From NCBI GenBank assembly GCA_905199545.1, contig CAJKGW010000001.1:144606-208605 (forward strand): a DNA stretch of 64,000 nt. Direction: 5' to 3'. The position numbers and the translations under genes are program-made. Positions 2,747 to 9,842 of this stretch are shown in pieces; position 1 is the stretch's first letter, and each line of letters begins with the position of its first letter. The notes beneath the pieces are model-generated. The model made no database searches and was not told the DNA's origin. It saw only the letters and a program-made list of their open reading frames with translations. This DNA comes from an uncultured Collinsella sp. GTDB taxonomy: Bacteria > Actinomycetota > Coriobacteriia > Coriobacteriales > Coriobacteriaceae.

Positions 2747-4888
2747 GTGGCAAAAAAGCCTCAGCACGCTCAGAACAACCAGCGCAGTCAGCAGGGCAAA
2801 CAGGGCCAGCAACAAAAGCGCGGCGGCAAGGCGCAGGCCACGGTCGCCCGCACCAAGCATTCCCAAGCGACGCCCGCCCGCCCCTGGCGGCCGGGCCGCG
2901 ATAAGTTCCTCCCCGTCAGCCGCGCCGACATGGATGCGCGCGGCTGGGACCAGTGCGACTTTGTCTACATCTGCGGCGACGCCTACGTGGACCATCCCAG
3001 CTTTGGTATGGCCATCGTCAGCCGCGTCCTCGACGCGCACGGCTACAAGGTGGGCATCATCTGCCAGCCCGACTGGACCGACCCCGCCAGCATCACCGTG
3101 CTTGGCGAGCCGCGCCTGGGCTTTCTCGTCAGCGCCGGCAACATGGACTCCATGGTCAACCACTATTCGGTGACCAAGCACCGCCGCCACACCGACGCCT
3201 ATACCCCTGGTGGCGAGGAGGGGCGCCGTCCCAATCGTGCCGTCACGGTCTACGGCAACCTCATCCGCCAGACGTTCAAGGACGCTCCCATCATCATCGG
3301 CGGCATCGAGGCAAGCCTGCGCCGCCTGGCCCACTACGACTACTGGCAGGACAAGCTCAAGCGCTCGGTACTGCTCGACTCGGGCGCCGACATCCTCATC
3401 TACGGCATGGGCGAGCACGCGATTGTCGAGATCGCCGACGCGCTCGATGCGGGGCTGCCCGTCGATCAGATCACCTATATCAACGGCACCGTCTACCGCA
3501 CGGGCTCGCTCGACGAGGTCTACGACTACGACCTGCTGCCCAGCTGGGACGACCTTACCGCCGACAAGCTCAACTACGCGCGCAGCTTTAACGTGCAGCA
3601 GCAGAATATGGACCCCATCACCGGTCATCGCCTGGTAGAGCCCTACCCCAACAGCGTCTATGTGGTGCAGAACCCGCCGTCGGCGACACTCACCACCGAC
3701 GAGATGGACGAGGTGGCCGAACTCCCCTACGCACGCGATTGGCATCCCGACTACGACACGGCGGGCGGCGTGCCGGCCTTTGCCGAGATCAAGTTTTCAA
3801 TTAGCTCCAACCGCGGCTGTTTTGGCGAGTGCTCGTTTTGCGCCCTCACCTTCCACCAAGGCCGCGTGCTGCAGATGCGCAGCCACGACTCGATCATGCG
3901 CGAGGCCGAGCTGCTCACGCGCGATCCCGAGTTTAAGGGCTACATCAACGACGTGGGAGGACCAACGGCCAACTTTAGCCGTCCCGCCTGCGACAAGCAG
4001 CTCAAGCACGGCGTATGCAAGAACAAGCGCTGCCTGTGGCCGAGCGTGTGCAAGAACATGGTGGTCGACGAGAGCGGCTACACGCAGCTGCTGCGCGACC
4101 TGCGTCAGCTGCCGGGCGTCAAAAAGGTCTTCGTGCGCAGCGGCATCCGCTTTGACTACACCATGGCCGACGCCTCGGACGAGTTTTTGCGAGAGCTGCT
4201 GGAGCATCATGTCTCGGGCCAGCTACGCGTGGCGCCCGAGCATGTGAGCGATGCGGTGCTGTCCGTGATGGGCAAACCGAGCCGTGCCGTCTACGACGCG
4301 TTCTGCCGTAAATTTGAACGCTTGAACCGCGAATACGGACTCAAGCAGTACGTGGTGCCGTATCTGATCTCGAGCCATCCCGGCTCGACGATGAAGGAAG
4401 CCGTGGACCTTGCCGAGGCCGTGCGCGACATGGGCTATATGCCCGAGCAGGTGCAGGACTTCTACCCCACGCCGTCCACCATGTCGACCTGCATGTACTA
4501 CACCGGCGTGGATCCGCGCACCATGGAGCCGATCTACGTAGCCCGCGACCCGCACGAGAAGGCCATGCAGCGCGCGCTCATCCAGTACCGCAAGCCCGAG
4601 AACTACAAGCTCGTGCGCGAAGCACTGGAAAAGGCCGGGCGTCGTGACCTGATCGGCTACACCAAGCATTGCCTGATTCGCCCCGTGCCGCCGCGCCCGG
4701 GCGAGACGTCTGCTGGCGGTGGGCATGGCACCGGCAAGAAGGGCGGCAAGGCCCACGGTGGCGCCGCCGGCAAGGGGCCCAAGGGCAGCAAGGGGCGCAG
4801 TGGCATGTCGCGCGCGCAGAACACCGCAGGCCGCAACCGCGCGGCGCAGGGGCGTCAGGGCGCCAACGGCGGCGGCAGGCGCAACTAG
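2747..4888 (+). CDS. ygiQ: YgiQ family radical SAM protein (UPF0313) with low-complexity N- and C-terminal tails
   Basis: FLPVSRADMDARGWDQCDFVYICGDAYVDHPSFG matches the YgiQ N-terminal signature. CFGECSFC is the radical-SAM Cys cluster. The start is ambiguous. GTG at 2747 has a GGGAGGG SD, and ATG at 2930 is the alternative. The C-terminus is a K/G-rich tail. Confidence 0.85.
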   Translation: MAKKPQHAQNNQRSQQGKQGQQQKRGGKAQATVARTKHSQATPARPWRPGRDKFLPVSRADMDARGWDQCDFVYICGDAYVDHPSFGMAIVSRVLDAHGYKVGIICQPDWTDPASITVLGEPRLGFLVSAGNMDSMVNHYSVTKHRRHTDAYTPGGEEGRRPNRAVTVYGNLIRQTFKDAPIIIGGIEASLRRLAHYDYWQDKLKRSVLLDSGADILIYGMGEHAIVEIADALDAGLPVDQITYINGTVYRTGSLDEVYDYDLLPSWDDLTADKLNYARSFNVQQQNMDPITGHRLVEPYPNSVYVVQNPPSATLTTDEMDEVAELPYARDWHPDYDTAGGVPAFAEIKFSISSNRGCFGECSFCALTFHQGRVLQMRSHDSIMREAELLTRDPEFKGYINDVGGPTANFSRPACDKQLKHGVCKNKRCLWPSVCKNMVVDESGYTQLLRDLRQLPGVKKVFVRSGIRFDYTMADASDEFLRELLEHHVSGQLRVAPEHVSDAVLSVMGKPSRAVYDAFCRKFERLNREYGLKQYVVPYLISSHPGSTMKEAVDLAEAVRDMGYMPEQVQDFYPTPSTMSTCMYYTGVDPRTMEPIYVARDPHEKAMQRALIQYRKPENYKLVREALEKAGRRDLIGYTKHCLIRPVPPRPGETSAGGGHGTGKKGGKAHGGAAGKGPKGSKGRSGMSRAQNTAGRNRAAQGRQGANGGGRRN

Positions 4889-4942
4889 GGCAGCGAGGGC
4901 CAGCCGGCGTCTCATGGCCAGCCGGCGTCCTTTCATCGGCCA

Positions 4943-5094
4943 AGCGTGTTTTCCCTAGGGGGAACACGCTTGGGCTGTCTCCAGTCGTGTTTTCCCTAGG
5001 GGGAACACGCTCAGACACACCTAGCCGTGTTTTCCTTAGGGGAATCACAGCAGATTTGTTTTTATCCACGTTGGCCCTTAAGGGAATCACGCTT
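4943..5094. repeat. Four tandem copies (period ~41-42 bp) of a palindromic unit AGCGTGTTTTCCCTAGGGGGAACACGCT, progressively degenerate
   Basis: Direct reading. Copies start at approximately 4943, 4985, 5026 and 5067. The array lies between convergent ygiQ and the CPBP gene. The last copy overlaps the CPBP 3' end. Confidence 0.65.
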
Positions 5095-5995
5095 GCTGGT
5101 AGGGACGATCCGTCTGGCACGTCAGCTTGAGCGACCGCATCGCCTCTACCAGTACAAAGCCGGCGATGGCAACCGTGACCGCCACGTCGAGCGGCGTGTT
5201 CACAAACCACAGCAGGCCCATCAGGTACGACCCGGCATTAAAGGCAAAGTGCAGCAGGATCGTGTAGCGGAGCTTTCCGGTCGTCACGAGCACCCAACCA
5301 AAGATGAGGCCGGCGGCGCCCGCGTAGCAACCCTGCACCCAATTCATGTGCATAAAACCGAAGATTGCCGCCTGCAACACAGTCGCCGCGGCGATACCCC
5401 ACGTGCTTGGAGCCGCCCAGGGCACCATGGCGCCGTCCTGTGCGCTCGCACGACGCCGGCGTTTCCAGAGCGGACGGCACTGCGGGTTAAACGCTCGGAG
5501 CGAAAACTCAAAAATGATACCGCGCACCAGCAGCTCCTCGCAAAACGGAGCGCCGAGCACCGTGGTCAGGACGGACAGATAGCTCGTGTCGCCCATGCCC
5601 GTCTCCTCGACAAGTTCGCTATAATCGGCCGCGGCATCAGGCAACAGCGACAGCACAGCGTCGGTCACGTAGCCAACGACCACCTGCAGGGCAAGACCGA
5701 TCACGATAACGCAGGCGATGCGTTTCCACGCCCCACGCGCTCCCCCGCCAAGCGGACGCTCGTCCTGCCAGCGCGCCATAAACGAGCGCGGCCACAGATA
5801 ACGCCACCACAGCAGCGCCATCAAAAACGATGCCGTCTGAGCGGCAGCCTGGAACCATTGGATATCGAGATTGTCGATCGGATAGCCCATCAGCACCGAC
5901 ACGGCATCGAGAACTGAAAACAGAACCGCGCTCAGGGCTATATCGGCAGCGACGACGCCAAAACAGGCAAGCGCCCAAATCATCGCATTGAGCAT
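5087..5995 (-). CDS. CPBP family intramembrane metalloprotease (CAAX protease / Abi domain)
   Basis: Motifs EELLVRG, FGFMHM and HFAFN are present in a multi-TM protein. The ATG is at complement 5993-5995 with a GAGGAGG SD 5 nt upstream. Confidence 0.8.
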   Translation of the reverse strand: MLNAMIWALACFGVVAADIALSAVLFSVLDAVSVLMGYPIDNLDIQWFQAAAQTASFLMALLWWRYLWPRSFMARWQDERPLGGGARGAWKRIACVIVIGLALQVVVGYVTDAVLSLLPDAAADYSELVEETGMGDTSYLSVLTTVLGAPFCEELLVRGIIFEFSLRAFNPQCRPLWKRRRRASAQDGAMVPWAAPSTWGIAAATVLQAAIFGFMHMNWVQGCYAGAAGLIFGWVLVTTGKLRYTILLHFAFNAGSYLMGLLWFVNTPLDVAVTVAIAGFVLVEAMRSLKLTCQTDRPYQQA

Positions 5996-6049
5996 GCCAA
6001 CCTCCTCAAAACCGTTCCCTAGTTCTACCACAACTCGGCAGAGAGCTGA

Positions 6050-6080
6050 TCCCATGGGGACGGAGGAAAACGGATCACTT
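6050..6080. repeat. Copy 1 of a ~28-bp direct repeat CCCATGGGGACGGAGGAAAACGGATCAC
   Basis: Direct reading. A second copy sits at 6448-6478. Confidence 0.7.
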
Positions 6081-6279
6081 ATTGATGAGAATCGGGCGCA
6101 GTGCCAAAGGCCCCGTTGGGCGAAATGTCGAACGGAAAGGTGCCGCAGCGATTAAACGCGGCGATAAACATGCGGATGGCGTTGGACGGCGTGGTGCCCA
6201 CGAGTTGGGTTGCCGCCGCGAAGGCCGCCTTTTCCTCGGGCAAGACCTTCGCGACAACCGGGGTCATGTGTTCTGCCAT
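6079..6279 (-). CDS. RelB/DinJ-family antitoxin-like small protein (COG3077)
   Basis: 66 aa, MAEHMTPVVAKVLPEEKAAFAAATQLVGTTPSNAIRMFIAAFNRCGTFPFDI. This fits the DinJ pattern (DxxLK...LGLTxSxAIRMFL...IPF). An AAGGAAG SD lies upstream. Confidence 0.6.
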   Translation of the reverse strand: MAEHMTPVVAKVLPEEKAAFAAATQLVGTTPSNAIRMFIAAFNRCGTFPFDISPNGAFGTAPDSHQ

Positions 6280-6447
6280 GGCGCTTCCTTTTTGAAACGA
6301 CGGTGGTGCGGATAGATGCGGGCCACGCGGCTGGGCGACGGGCTGTGAAGGCAACCCGATTGGCCCGCATCTGGAGTTTGTTTCTGCGGCGTTGGTATTA
6401 CTTGGTATCCCTAAGTATTACCCCCCAGATAGAATACCACAGCCGAC

Positions 6448-6478
6448 CCCATTGGGACGGAGGAAAAACGGATCATTT
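6448..6478. repeat. Copy 2 of the ~28-bp direct repeat CCCATTGGGACGGAGGAAAAACGGATCAT
   Basis: Direct reading. Each copy contains a CCCATGGG or CCCAATGGG palindrome and a GGAGGAAAA stretch. Confidence 0.7.
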
Positions 6479-6740
6479 TGTTGCTGAATGAGTATTTAGA
6501 GCGTGATGATGCCCGAGACATTGAGGGCCCGAGCGTCAGCGGCATCGTGCGTGGCAAGCAACAGTATGCGGCCGCCGCGCGTCAGCAGAAAACCTCATGC
6601 CCTGCATCGATGTCGGATAGCCCATCCCCCATATCAGCCCTTTGCACCAAACGACAATGCCCCGTCCGCGCAAGCACGCGAACGGGGCATTGGTCAAGTT
6701 TTGCGGTCAGCGACCCTTTTGTGCCAGCGTCCTTCTGTCT

Positions 6741-8123
6741 TTAGCTAAGCTCGGGCCAGTAACCCTTGTTGGCCTCGATCATGTCGTCGAGAACCTCCTT
6801 GGCGACCTTCATCGAAGGCACGGTCTTGTTGAGCGTGAAGGCCTTGAGTGCCTTCTCGTACGAGCCCTCGATCGTGGCCTCGACCACGAGCTTCTCGGAG
6901 TTCAGCTGCTGCATCATGAGGCCCTGCTGGAACAGAGGAATATTGTCGCGGCTGATGACCTCGGGGCCGTTCTTGCCAATGTAGGCAGGCAGCTCGACCA
7001 TGGCGTCGTAGGGCATGTTGGGAATAGCGCCCTTGTTCTCGCAGATGACCAGGAAGCGCTGCTTGGTATCGTTCTTCAGAGCGATTGCCAGGTCGGCGAT
7101 CCAGTCGCCGTGGCTGCCCGCATAGAACGTGCTCTCGTCGATCTCGCCCGTCTTCTCGTAGTGGTCGATGCCGTCGAAGAGGTTCTTCTCGCGCGTCTCC
7201 TCAACCTCGTTTGCACGGGTGCGCTCGGGGTTGGAATGCTCGACGAACTCCTTCTGCTGCAGGTAGTAGTTCAGGTACGTGTTGGGCAGGTACTCCGGGA
7301 AGCACTCCATGATCTCGTACTCGCCCTTCCAGACGTAGTACCAGCTGCCCTTGGTGTGGCGGTTCTGCTCGGGGTGCTCGTCAGTGGCCTCCTCGGGCTT
7401 CTTTGCCATGAGCGAGCCCATGCCCTTGAGGTAGGAGTCGGGCAGCAGAATCTCATGCTCCTTGATGTACTCGCGCAGCTGCGGGAGCACCTCCTCGCCC
7501 TTGTGGCGGATCGAGGTGAACCAACCAAAGTGGTTGAGGCCAAAGTAATCGTACTCGACATCCTTCTTGTCGATATCGAGTGCGGCGCAAACCACGTCGA
7601 TGATCGCGATCGGCATGTCGCAGATGTTGATGATGCGAGCGTTGGGGCGCAGCACACGGCAGCCCTCGGACACGATGGCGGCAGGGTTGGAGTAGTTGAG
7701 AATCCAGTAGTCCTTCTTGGCGTACTTCTCGACGTCATCGATCAGCTCGACCATGGGGAAGATGGTGCGCATGCCGTAGGCAAGGCCGCCGCAACCGCAG
7801 GTCTCCTGGCCCACGCAGCCGTGACGCAGCGGAATCTTCTCGTCCTGCTCGCGCATGGCGTAGCCGCCCACGCGCATCTGGGCAAACACGAAGCTCGCGT
7901 CGGTAAAAGCCGTCTTTTTGTCGGTGGTCACCGTAAGCTTGATGTCCAGGCCGAGGTCCTCGTGCAAAATCCAGTCCACGAGCACGCCGATCTTGCGCTG
8001 GCGCTCCTCGTTGATGTCGTACAGACGAATCTCGTCAACATCGAGCTCGTCCTTGCGCAGGGCGATGGACTTGACGATGCCGGGGGTAAAGGTGGATCCG
8101 CCACCACACAGAGTAATGATCAT
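6741..8123 (-). CDS. glvA: GH4 6-phospho-alpha-glucosidase (maltose-6'-phosphate glucosidase, GlvA/MalH-like)
   Basis: Strong motif-by-motif match to B. subtilis GlvA: NYSNPAAIV, NICDMP, GLNHFGWF, PNTYLNYYL, SNPERTRANEV, ENKGAIPNMPYDAMVELP, EANKGYWPEL. GAAGGAG SD. Confidence 0.9.
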   Translation of the reverse strand: MIITLCGGGSTFTPGIVKSIALRKDELDVDEIRLYDINEERQRKIGVLVDWILHEDLGLDIKLTVTTDKKTAFTDASFVFAQMRVGGYAMREQDEKIPLRHGCVGQETCGCGGLAYGMRTIFPMVELIDDVEKYAKKDYWILNYSNPAAIVSEGCRVLRPNARIINICDMPIAIIDVVCAALDIDKKDVEYDYFGLNHFGWFTSIRHKGEEVLPQLREYIKEHEILLPDSYLKGMGSLMAKKPEEATDEHPEQNRHTKGSWYYVWKGEYEIMECFPEYLPNTYLNYYLQQKEFVEHSNPERTRANEVEETREKNLFDGIDHYEKTGEIDESTFYAGSHGDWIADLAIALKNDTKQRFLVICENKGAIPNMPYDAMVELPAYIGKNGPEVISRDNIPLFQQGLMMQQLNSEKLVVEATIEGSYEKALKAFTLNKTVPSMKVAKEVLDDMIEANKGYWPELS

Positions 8124-8126
8124 TGT

Positions 8127-9743
8127 TTACTGCTCCTTCTCAATTGCGTTTTCGACCTTGTCGCGCATCTCGGCGACCTTCATGCCAAAGATGATCTGGA
8201 TATTATTGCCGTTGCGGTTGATGCCGCTGTTGGGCACGTGGTTGATGAGGTTCTCATCGATGAGGTCCGGGTTCTTAACGTTCACGCGGAGACGCGTAAA
8301 GCAGTTCTCGAGCTCCTCGATGTTGTCCTTGCCGCCAAGACCTGCGACCAGGTCGGCAATACCTGCATCGACACCCTCTGCAGGAGCCGCGGCAACAGCG
8401 CCCTGCTTTACCGCGACAGACGCGGCGGCCTCGCCCTCGGCAACGGACTCGGCGAGCTCGGACTCCTCCTCGCGACCAGGCGTGTGGAGCTTGAGCTTCT
8501 TAATGAGGAAGCTAAAGAGGAAGAAGTACAGAGCGGCGTTGACGACTCCAAGCACCAGCATAACCGGCCAGTTGGTCTTATCGACACCAAGAACCAGGTT
8601 GGAAACCACGATGTTGATGATGCCGCCTGCAGTCGAAGCGGGCACGGAGAGGACCTTGAGCAGAACCAGGAAGATGCCGGAAAGAACCGAGTGAACGACA
8701 AAGAGCACGGGAGCGGCAAAGACAAAGAGGAAGTCCATGGGCTCGGTCACGCAGGAGAGCACGGCGGTGATGATCAGCGGGATGATAACGGCCTTGGTCT
8801 TATCCTTGTTCTCCTTGTAAGCGGTGAAGATAAAGGCGAGACCGATACCGATATAGGGCCACAGGTTGTTGAAGGTGTAGCTGTTGAAATACGTGCTGTC
8901 GGAGAAGGGCTGGCCCGTCATTGCCATCTCGGCGACACGGATGGGATAGGCGCCGGCGATAACCTGACCACCCAGCGTCAGGGTGCCGCCCACATCGGAG
9001 AACTGGAACGGGGTGTAGATGAGGTGGTGCAGACCGGTGGGAACGAGCAGCTTATTGAGCATGCCGTAGATAAACAGACCGATGTTGCCCGACTCCTTAA
9101 TAATGCCGGCAACGGAGGAGATGGCACCCTGAACCGGAGGCCAAACGATGCAGAAGCCAGCACCCATGATCCAGGAAATGATGATCATGATCAGGAAAGG
9201 AAAACGAACGCCCGAGAACATCGAAAGGGCAATGGGGAACTGCTTGTTCGAGTACTTGTTGAACACGGCACCGGTGATGCAGCCCAGGATGATGCCACCA
9301 AACACGCCGGTATCGAGCACCTGGATGCCCATAACGGTGGCCTGGCCGGTTCCGGTAAGACCGAGCATGCCACTCGCATCGGCAAGAGAGCCGGTGGCGT
9401 TGAGCACGATGTTGTTAGCCTGCAGGAACAGGAAGAACGACATCAGGGCAATCAGCGAAGCATGGCCCTTGTTCTTCTTTGCCATGGCGCCGGCAATGCC
9501 CACGCAGAACAGAATCGAGAGGTTGTTGATGATAAACATCAGCGACTGATAGACAACGGCGCCCACAAGCTGGAACGGACCGGAGCCCAGTACGGGGATC
9601 AAGGCGCAAATGGTCTTGTTGGTCAGAATAATGCCCACGATGAGCAGAATGCCGGCAACCGAGAGATACATCATCGGCTGAACGATTGACTTCGCGAACA
9701 CCTCCAACGGCGCTTTGAAATTGAACTTCTTTTTTGCGGTCAT
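8127..9743 (-). CDS. PTS glucose/maltose-family EIICB component (alpha-glucoside specific by context)
   Basis: Multi-TM EIIC domain followed by an EIIB domain with the ENCFTRLRVNV phospho-Cys motif. Start MTAKKKFNFK has an AAGGAAGGGGA SD. The stop abuts the glvA start. Confidence 0.9.
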   Translation of the reverse strand: MTAKKKFNFKAPLEVFAKSIVQPMMYLSVAGILLIVGIILTNKTICALIPVLGSGPFQLVGAVVYQSLMFIINNLSILFCVGIAGAMAKKNKGHASLIALMSFFLFLQANNIVLNATGSLADASGMLGLTGTGQATVMGIQVLDTGVFGGIILGCITGAVFNKYSNKQFPIALSMFSGVRFPFLIMIIISWIMGAGFCIVWPPVQGAISSVAGIIKESGNIGLFIYGMLNKLLVPTGLHHLIYTPFQFSDVGGTLTLGGQVIAGAYPIRVAEMAMTGQPFSDSTYFNSYTFNNLWPYIGIGLAFIFTAYKENKDKTKAVIIPLIITAVLSCVTEPMDFLFVFAAPVLFVVHSVLSGIFLVLLKVLSVPASTAGGIINIVVSNLVLGVDKTNWPVMLVLGVVNAALYFFLFSFLIKKLKLHTPGREEESELAESVAEGEAAASVAVKQGAVAAAPAEGVDAGIADLVAGLGGKDNIEELENCFTRLRVNVKNPDLIDENLINHVPNSGINRNGNNIQIIFGMKVAEMRDKVENAIEKEQ

Positions 9744-9769
9744 AGCGGTACTCCCCTTCCTTTTCCGCA

Positions 9770-9842
9770 AATTAAGACAAATGTGCCCTGGGCAAGACCG
9801 TGAGCCTTGCCTTATATCAATCGATGTGTGGGCACGTTATGC
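9770..9842 (-). promoter_or_regulatory. Leader region with a candidate RAT/terminator for the LicT-type antiterminator
   Basis: The reverse strand reads GATTGATATAAGGCAAGGCTCACGGTCTTGCC. That is a GGCAAG...CTTGCC hairpin with partial similarity to the RAT consensus (ATTG..GCAGGCAA). Confidence 0.35.

Follow-up and report, generated by a model that had tools for sequence, protein, structure and literature searches.

An antitoxin-like ribbon-helix-helix protein of Collinsella as a probable autoregulated repressor with a CPBP protease as operon cargo

Does a small antitoxin-like gene that directly precedes the gene for a membrane protease form a toxin or immunity module with it, or has the protease gene come to lie behind a repressor that regulates itself? 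The question is raised by a locus in a 64,000-nucleotide stretch of DNA from an uncultured Collinsella sp. (contig CAJKGW010000001.1), which we refer to as the window. On the minus strand, a gene encoding a 66-aa ribbon-helix-helix (RHH) protein that resembles RelB/DinJ antitoxins is followed by a gene encoding a CPBP (Rce1-like/Abi) intramembrane protease; both open reading frames (ORFs) lie where a first-pass annotation had placed them. That annotation proposed that the genes constitute a two-gene stress or immunity module whose regulator binds a direct repeat of ~28 bp. Our analysis favors a different explanation, to which we assign a probability of roughly 0.6: the RHH protein is an orphan, autoregulated repressor, the CPBP gene is its operon cargo in Coriobacteriaceae, and the repeat is not the binding site of the repressor.

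The evidence that the 66-aa protein contains an N-terminal DNA-binding and dimerization domain of the RelB/DinJ type is weak but consistent. The Pfam RelB model (PF04221) matches the protein with 23.4 bits (E 5.6e-5), which narrowly passes the gathering cut-off (GA) of 22.4, and the score against the NCBIfam RelB_DinJ model (TIGR02384) is 22.9, under the cut-off of 45.65. A profile of the protein's own homologues compared with the PDB retrieved DinJ (9lew; E 1e-3) and RelB (2k29; E 0.011). The AlphaFold (AF2) model has an extended N-terminus, helices at residues 14-27 and 31-45, and a tail with a predicted local distance difference test score (pLDDT) <50. In a fold search with this small monomer, the top matches (DinJ, Arc, ParD, VapB, AtaR, and NikR) are all RHH proteins, none of them significant (E at least 0.44). 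The RelB/DinJ-like identity assigned in the first pass is borne out by these results. Homologues of the protein are labelled "type II toxin-antitoxin system RelB/DinJ family antitoxin" in the source annotation, and for both proteins the homologues are from Collinsella.

The protein ends 14 residues past FPFD, and the tails of its orthologues (10-40 aa) vary in both sequence and length. The nearest RHH paralogues are 85-96 aa long and share the common core …GTTPSNAIRMF…FPFD plus a further 30-45 conserved residues, which we take to be the counterpart of the toxin-binding part of RelB/DinJ antitoxins. A C-terminal region of this toxin-wrapping, neutralizing kind is absent from the 66-aa protein. 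Likewise, no RelE/YafQ-like toxin gene was found adjoining the RHH gene, whose neighbors in the window are the CPBP gene downstream and a GH4 glycosidase gene upstream; the absence of a canonical toxin partner had been correctly recognized. As one element of the explanation favored here, the 66-aa protein probably amounts to an RHH domain of antitoxin origin and nothing more, the toxin-binding tail having been lost or never present.

A scan of species-representative genomes yielded only near-identical Collinsella loci, of which the best 80 matches were analyzed. A second scan, ranked on a sister-clade sequence so as to sample diversity, covered metagenomes. Among the 80 Collinsella-type loci, identity of the RHH protein is 100%, apart from six loci with 98.5%, and that of the CPBP protein is 83-95%; median nucleotide identities in the C. 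aerofaciens group are 96.5% for the RHH gene versus 88.8% for the CPBP gene. RHH orthologues from two clades, representing two families, share 25 invariant residues, which include T6, P7, V9, A10, and K11 of the predicted DNA-reading strand. This strand, MTPVVAKV, does not vary across the lineages of either family. Among 1.84 billion cluster representatives, the orthologous group comprises five clusters at 129-137 bits, after which scores fall to 88 bits. Judged by these comparisons, the RHH gene is an old, vertically inherited, and strongly constrained chromosomal gene of the Coriobacteriales.

Upstream of the RHH gene, a promoter element and a candidate operator are conserved with it (Table 1). 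All 33 lineage representatives have TAnnnT at the putative -10 element, and 26 of them have its extended form TGnTAnnnT. It is precisely at this element that per-column conservation among C. aerofaciens-group loci rises to 0.97-1.00, and it remains high onward through the leader and the RHH gene. A sigma-70 scan did not call the RHH promoter because no -35 element is present, so that the promoter call rests on conservation across lineages. The candidate operator follows the -10 hexamer at a distance of ~8-10 nt, in flanks that are otherwise unalignable. The element GGGTAwwAC-N5-mATACnAAGTmATACC (consensus GGGTAtaACatAg..ATAC.AAGTaATACC) is present in all 75 distinct upstream sequences and thereby in every RHH-carrying lineage of both clades. 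Its pseudo-symmetry takes the form GGTA...TACC, or GGTAT...ATACC in most lineages. At two or fewer mismatches, the core of the element occurs only upstream of the RHH gene in the 746,659 nt of loci plus window (window matches at 6393-6408 and 6403-6418), and no further sites that would define a regulon were found in this sequence.

RHH dimers bind tandem half-sites or pseudo-symmetric short repeats of such a kind, and a conserved element of this type at its own promoter is what an autoregulated stand-alone RHH repressor would be expected to have. Because the conserved element and the invariant DNA-reading strand occur in the same lineages, we take the element to be the operator and the arrangement to reflect autorepression. 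The ATAC element is in our reading a better operator candidate than the repeat, and its binding by the RHH protein is predicted from this shared conservation.

The RHH gene, with a ribosome-binding site AGGAAG at 6284-6289, is preceded by a long 5' leader that is predicted to form a strong hairpin. In the C. aerofaciens group, per-column conservation of the leader is 0.94-1.00 and its identity of 97.5-100% exceeds that of protein-coding genes. Leaders of this length (~90-150 nt) are found only in the clade linked to CPBP, compared with 28-60 nt in the other clade. The leader of one locus (L101) has an unrelated sequence and a similar strong hairpin (z -2.15). Rfam gave no match for the leader or the operator-like element. 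Known RNA families were also considered for the leader, the spacer, and the palindromic repeats and were rejected, the only matches being spurious microRNA hairpins far under gathering scores.

The distribution of the two genes reveals a close association within one family and none in its sister. In all 77 Collinsella-type loci that extend far enough (among the best 80 species representatives), the RHH gene is followed by the CPBP gene. In the metagenomes, loci whose RHH core ends in FPFD, the Coriobacteriaceae type, have a CPBP gene in 27 of 28 cases, giving an overall linkage of 104/105 Coriobacteriaceae-type loci despite changing flanking genes. Loci whose core ends in FPFE, which comprise 25 distinct protein cores and include a cluster named Atopobiaceae by NCBI, have a CPBP gene in 0 of 49 cases; here the RHH gene is solitary throughout, with unrelated and variable neighbors. 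The co-occurrence predicted in the first pass holds up, in that the pair also recurs in C. tanakaei-type loci, Enorma (Enorma phocaeensis-type), and other relatives, with CPBP identities of only 30-39% and the catalytic residues retained. In these outgroups the two genes overlap or are separated by 14-53 nt, and the flanking genes differ. The Enorma CPBP protein used as a search query found only five relatives.

Two loci separate the partners. In L157, the RHH gene is directly followed by ThrE, which indicates that the CPBP gene has been lost; in L102, a CPBP orthologue lies directly after a DEAD-box helicase gene, with no RHH gene at the locus. Joint retention and loss or a patchy, mobile distribution, as of a toxin-antitoxin or addiction module, was not observed (for L102 at the level of the locus). 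Together with the solitary RHH gene of the sister clade, L157 and L102 indicate that the pairing is a derived, family-level operon fusion and not an obligatory two-gene unit. A Collinsella-type locus was also encountered in a bin titled "Treponemataceae bacterium" (L013; CAVCKO010000028.1), where the small protein is 100% and the CPBP protein 89.5% identical; this contig is probably mis-binned.

Two further observations concern the surroundings of the solitary RHH gene. A 75-aa protein is encoded next to it in two sister-clade lineages (L081, 4605-4832; L098, 1677-1904), downstream in one and upstream in the other; the two versions are 53% identical, have no Pfam match, and are absent from the window and from Collinsella loci. 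In two distinct sister-clade lineages, genes of the Tad-pilus type flank the RHH gene (L086/L087, 1-2787; L092-L094, downstream of RHH), namely T2SSF and DUF4860; SAF/CpaB, MipZ-like, T2SSE, and T2SSF, an arrangement that could be due to chance.

These findings suggest a model in which the product of the small gene derives from RelB/DinJ antitoxins and acts on its own as an RHH repressor of transcription. Dimers of the protein would most likely bind the ~30-bp element, in which three ATAC-type half-sites are spaced by one helical turn, and thereby shut off transcription of their own gene from the extended -10 promoter. In the Coriobacteriaceae branch, the CPBP gene would have come to lie directly downstream, often overlapping or a few bases away, a position that implies its co-transcription and places it under the autoregulated promoter. 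The 45-47-nt repeat would be a lineage-specific, recent local duplication of DNA just upstream of the promoter that landed in the spacer between the two genes, and the spacer with this second copy would be one of three alleles that couple CPBP expression more or less tightly to that of the RHH gene.

Does the repeat itself qualify as an operator? It is real and has two copies, as first described, although its length is 45-47 nt and copy 2 extends over the last 10 nt of the RHH gene. A repeat search returned the matching pairs 6044-6070/6441-6467 and 6067-6080/6465-6478 with one indel between them, and local alignment of the copies scored 50 versus 18.3 +/- 2.3 (maximum 28) in 300 shuffles, far beyond chance. 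The 64 kb contain exactly two instances of the 14-mer GGGACGGAGGAAAA. In the window, the palindrome attributed to the repeat is perfect only in copy 2 (CCCCATGGG); copy 1, which lies 162 nt before the RHH ATG, has an imperfect version (CCCAATGGGG). Copy 1 shows no sign of constraint: in the C. aerofaciens group its median identity is 91.5% and its per-column conservation 0.90-0.92, the same as that of flanking non-coding DNA. It has diverged in L069 and L078 and is replaced by unrelated DNA in L032, and C. tanakaei-type, Enorma-type, and L101 loci lack it in front of the RHH gene. Copy 2 is present in 50 of 78 C. aerofaciens-group loci and missing in 28. Since outgroups carry the element at neither position, it is peculiar to a single species group, and copy 2 was inserted secondarily. 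An operator confined in this way is hard to reconcile with an RHH N-terminal strand that is invariant over two families and with a different promoter element that is kept in every lineage.

The two copies are homologous from TCAGCAACAA / TCATCAA(C/T)AA onward, which points to a microhomology-mediated copying event at TCAnCAAcAA as the probable origin of copy 2. Three other accounts of the repeat were rejected. It is not a dispersed element, as neither the window nor the related 8-kb loci contain it anywhere else; it is not what is left of a second, tandem copy of the small gene lying upstream of copy 1, as no homology was found beyond 6487; and copy 1 does not contain the start of a divergent plus-strand gene (ORF 6478-6744), as this frame is interrupted by stops in many relatives. 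Substitutions in the latter ORF lack three-base periodicity (0.111/0.084/0.088, versus 0.006/0.001/0.078 for the small gene). In L032, a locus from one Collinsella genome, unrelated sequence takes the place of the DNA upstream of the -10 element (~3720-3860), copy 1 included; this sequence is delimited by the inverted repeat TTTGGGACATGCCCG...CGGGCATGTCCCAA and might be one terminus of a small mobile element.

The distance between the two genes was initially given as 24 bp. The CPBP start at 5995, which is conserved and has the Shine-Dalgarno sequence GAGGAGG (6001-6007), leaves a spacer of 83 nt; a gap of 23 nt fits only an upstream ATG at 6055, which lies within the repeat and is not present in alleles without it. 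The 78 C. aerofaciens-group loci contain three spacer alleles: a spacer of 40 nt (5 loci), one with a hairpin insert with perfect 22-bp arms (23 loci), and the version with copy 2 (50 loci), designated type C. No terminator-like site was found on the minus strand within the spacer of the window. The hairpin allele (L009 4199-4292 and 22 other loci), the counterpart of 5996-6078, has a predicted fold of -56.8 kcal/mol (z -7.7) followed by GGGUUUUGAGG, and compensatory changes distinguish L009 from L069. By its structure this allele looks like a terminator or attenuator, or like a miniature inverted-repeat insert.

Among the alternatives, the one that survives best assigns a specific regulatory role to copy 2, either as an internal, operator-less promoter for CPBP (TGTGGTAGAACT, 6021-6032) or as an anti-Shine-Dalgarno sequence (UUUUCCUCC) that masks the CPBP ribosome-binding site. 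The type C spacer, including GAGTTGTGGTAGAACTA, is nearly invariant in 50 species-level genomes, with 16 variants that each have one to four differences from the commonest, compared with a median of 88.8% for the CPBP gene. Similarity to the genuine promoter resumes at TGTGGTA after an 11-nt insertion, and CCUCC of copy 2 pairs with GAGGAG of the CPBP Shine-Dalgarno sequence in the predicted fold. However, the -10-like hexamer TAGAAC lacks the final T, a promoter scan finds nothing there, the energy of the fold is no better than that of shuffles (z 0.38), and 28 of 78 relatives do without copy 2. High conservation could also reflect a recent origin or spread of the allele. We regard either specific role as possible but doubtful.

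It is tempting to consider next a functional link between the two proteins. The CPBP protein has intact catalytic motifs, as judged from its alignment: E153-E154-xxx-R158, F212-xxx-H216, and H249-xxx-N253 do not vary among six orthologues that are 29-33% identical, and EExxxR, FxxxH, and HxxxN are all present in 29 orthologous ORFs. These motifs, together with the PF02517 match, are those of the CPBP glutamic intramembrane proteases and uphold the identity assigned in the first pass. In NCBIfam, the models for MroQ and other CPBP proteins match it weakly, with scores far under their cut-offs, and it is an equivalog of no named CPBP family. By analogy with BlaR1/BlaI and MecR1/MecI, the protease might sense or process a membrane or peptide signal and so relieve repression by the RHH protein; alternatively, the RHH protein might be a dedicated regulator of a CPBP protease that protects against an envelope-active peptide. 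Linkage of the genes while flanking genes change, the invariant catalytic motifs, and three spacer alleles suggestive of selection on gene coupling would all fit such a pair. The segment DISPxGAFG that follows the RHH core is conserved in the CPBP-linked clade, as is the long structured leader, and both are lacking in the other clade; these shared features may nevertheless reflect common descent only. Contact between the proteins, or cleavage, is purely hypothetical here, known CPBP substrates are membrane-associated peptides or proteins whereas the RHH protein is predicted to be soluble, and L102 and L157 show that either partner can do without the other. We consider a signaling pair unlikely. 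Its boldest form, an undescribed membrane-to-DNA circuit of Coriobacteriaceae in which the protease controls the activity or stability of the RHH protein, possibly through DISPxGAFG, is less probable again. If true, the operon and a wider ATAC-operator regulon would respond to an envelope or peptide signal, and the spacer alleles would tune the circuit between close gut strains.

The proposal that the DinJ-like protein neutralizes and/or regulates the CPBP protein in a non-canonical toxin-antitoxin, abortive-infection, or immunity module, with the 28-bp repeat as operator, is very improbable: it would account for the antitoxin-first gene order, the short or overlapping junctions in several lineages, the derivation of the RHH protein from an antitoxin family, a pairing retained over deep CPBP divergence, the fast evolution of CPBP (as is often seen in conflict genes), and the strong conservation of copy 2 where present, but it founders on an RHH protein without a conserved partner-binding tail, on the same protein, promoter, and operator-like element standing alone in 49/49 sister-clade loci, on the exceptions L157 and L102, on a chromosomal, vertical locus whose near-invariant small protein is the opposite of typical antitoxins, and on a repeat that is limited to one species group, dispensable in its second copy, and unconstrained in its first. 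The PADLOC defence models did not match the RHH or CPBP protein at E values up to 0.1. No bacteriocin, transporter, quorum-sensing, or agr genes of the kind that accompany Abi-type bacteriocin immunity proteins were seen near the locus, where small bacteriocin-like ORFs were not systematically searched for. The locus does not reveal a new toxin or defence system.

Several points weigh against the explanation we favor, an orphan repressor with the CPBP gene as cargo. The Pfam score is barely over its threshold and the fold search returned nothing significant (E at least 0.44). The operator-like element lies downstream of the -10 element and is probably transcribed, so it could act as RNA. A repressor that regulates itself alone is unlikely. 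Finally, the near-invariance of copy 2 and its spacer, above that of the CPBP gene, implies that copy 2 probably has some function, which our account leaves unspecified.

Table 1 Features of the RHH-CPBP locus in the window.
Feature	Position	Strand	Remarks
CPBP (Rce1-like/Abi) glutamic intramembrane protease gene	5087-5995	minus	302 aa; fast-evolving; PF02517 E 1.5e-14
Type C spacer	5996-6078	minus	83 nt; holds rest of copy 2, -10-like TGTGGTAGAACT (6021-6032), and CPBP Shine-Dalgarno sequence (6001-6007)
Repeat copy 2	6044-6088	minus	spans last 10 nt of RHH gene and first part of spacer; in type C spacer allele
Orphan RelB/DinJ-type RHH gene	6079-6279	minus	66 aa; core residues 1-52 conserved; tail variable, disordered
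Long 5' leader	6280-6393	minus	strong predicted hairpin (6314-6372, inverted repeat I6); -55.3 kcal/mol, z -3.46
Candidate operator GGGTAATACTTAGGGATACCAAGTAATACC	6394-6423	minus	three ATAC-type half-sites 10 bp apart; overall two-fold pseudo-symmetry
Putative extended -10 element TGGTATTCT of RHH gene	6431-6439	minus	fixed distance upstream of candidate operator
Repeat copy 1	6441-6487	minus	directly upstream of -10 element; ends two bases before -10 region

The wider neighborhood, in the window and in relatives, includes genes for a YgiQ-type radical SAM protein, GH4/PTS proteins, a DEAD helicase, an ABC amino-acid transporter, and ThrE. The region upstream of the RHH gene is variable (DEAD helicase in C. 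tanakaei-type loci, ABC transporter in Enorma) and the downstream YgiQ gene is syntenic. The GH4 6-phospho-glucosidase and PTS EIIC genes of the window (6741-9770) were matched in only 8 of 80 related Collinsella loci; a match had to cover 85% or more of a 600-nt probe taken from the 3' end of the GH4 gene, and many loci end short of that region upstream. Between the convergent CPBP (stop 5087) and YgiQ-type radical SAM (stop 4888) genes, positions 4940-5095 contain three to four tandem copies, with a period of 41, of the palindromic unit CGTGTTTTCCCTAGGGGGAACACG. This array occurs nowhere else in the 64 kb, and most related loci have not conserved the region in which it lies.

Collinsella, an abundant genus of the human gut, has been linked to several diseases, and to our knowledge almost nothing is known about its gene regulation. 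The locus offers one of the most conserved small regulators of the genus together with a precise candidate operator. The allelic series at the junction of the two genes (short spacer, hairpin insert, and promoter-fragment insert) could explain differences in CPBP expression between strains. An RHH protein that is labelled as an antitoxin and appears to behave as an orphan, housekeeping-type regulator also calls for caution in toxin-antitoxin censuses of gut metagenomes.

A literature search for CPBP proteins associated with antitoxins or RHH proteins found nothing relevant; one match was a locus-tag prefix and another reflected mere adjacency on staphylococcal plasmids. The closest known relatives of the small protein are the RelB/DinJ antitoxins, such as those of E. 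coli RelBE and DinJ-YafQ. Their N-terminal RHH domain is its best sequence match (PF04221, 9lew, 2k29), the domain closes with a conserved FPFD motif in both, and in both cases the gene is the first of a small operon and is likely autorepressed through the RHH domain. In RelB, this domain is required for repression and autorepression (PMC2812701), and the C-terminal region is essential for neutralization of RelE and for full repression (PMC12301738). The Collinsella protein differs in that it has no toxin-binding C-terminus and no RelE/YafQ gene beside it, and in that it is near-invariant and vertically inherited. The gene downstream encodes a presumably polytopic membrane protease and is present in one family only, and the candidate operator, with its three half-sites 10 bp apart, is kept across two bacterial families.

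The CPBP protein has PF02517 and the three motifs in common with CPBP/Abi proteins of bacteriocin loci (PlnI, SkkI, and SilX of Streptococcus anginosus; PMC9298176) and with MroQ of Staphylococcus aureus. It differs from them in being partnered with an RHH gene and in having no bacteriocin or agr-type neighbors. The resemblance to BlaR1/BlaI and MecR1/MecI would be one of layout only, in that a small repressor and a membrane protease are encoded together. Those systems combine a winged-helix repressor with a zinc metalloprotease sensor, families to which the RHH protein and the glutamic intramembrane protease of Collinsella are unrelated.

Arc, Mnt, CopG, omega, and MetJ are small, autoregulating proteins that consist essentially of the RHH domain and bind, as dimers, to tandem or pseudo-symmetric repeats that overlap the promoter. 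The Collinsella protein resembles these stand-alone repressors in its RHH-only size, and Arc is among its fold matches, none of which is significant. It is set apart from them by its sequence affinity to RelB/DinJ and by a gene that is chromosomal and order-wide rather than phage- or plasmid-borne.

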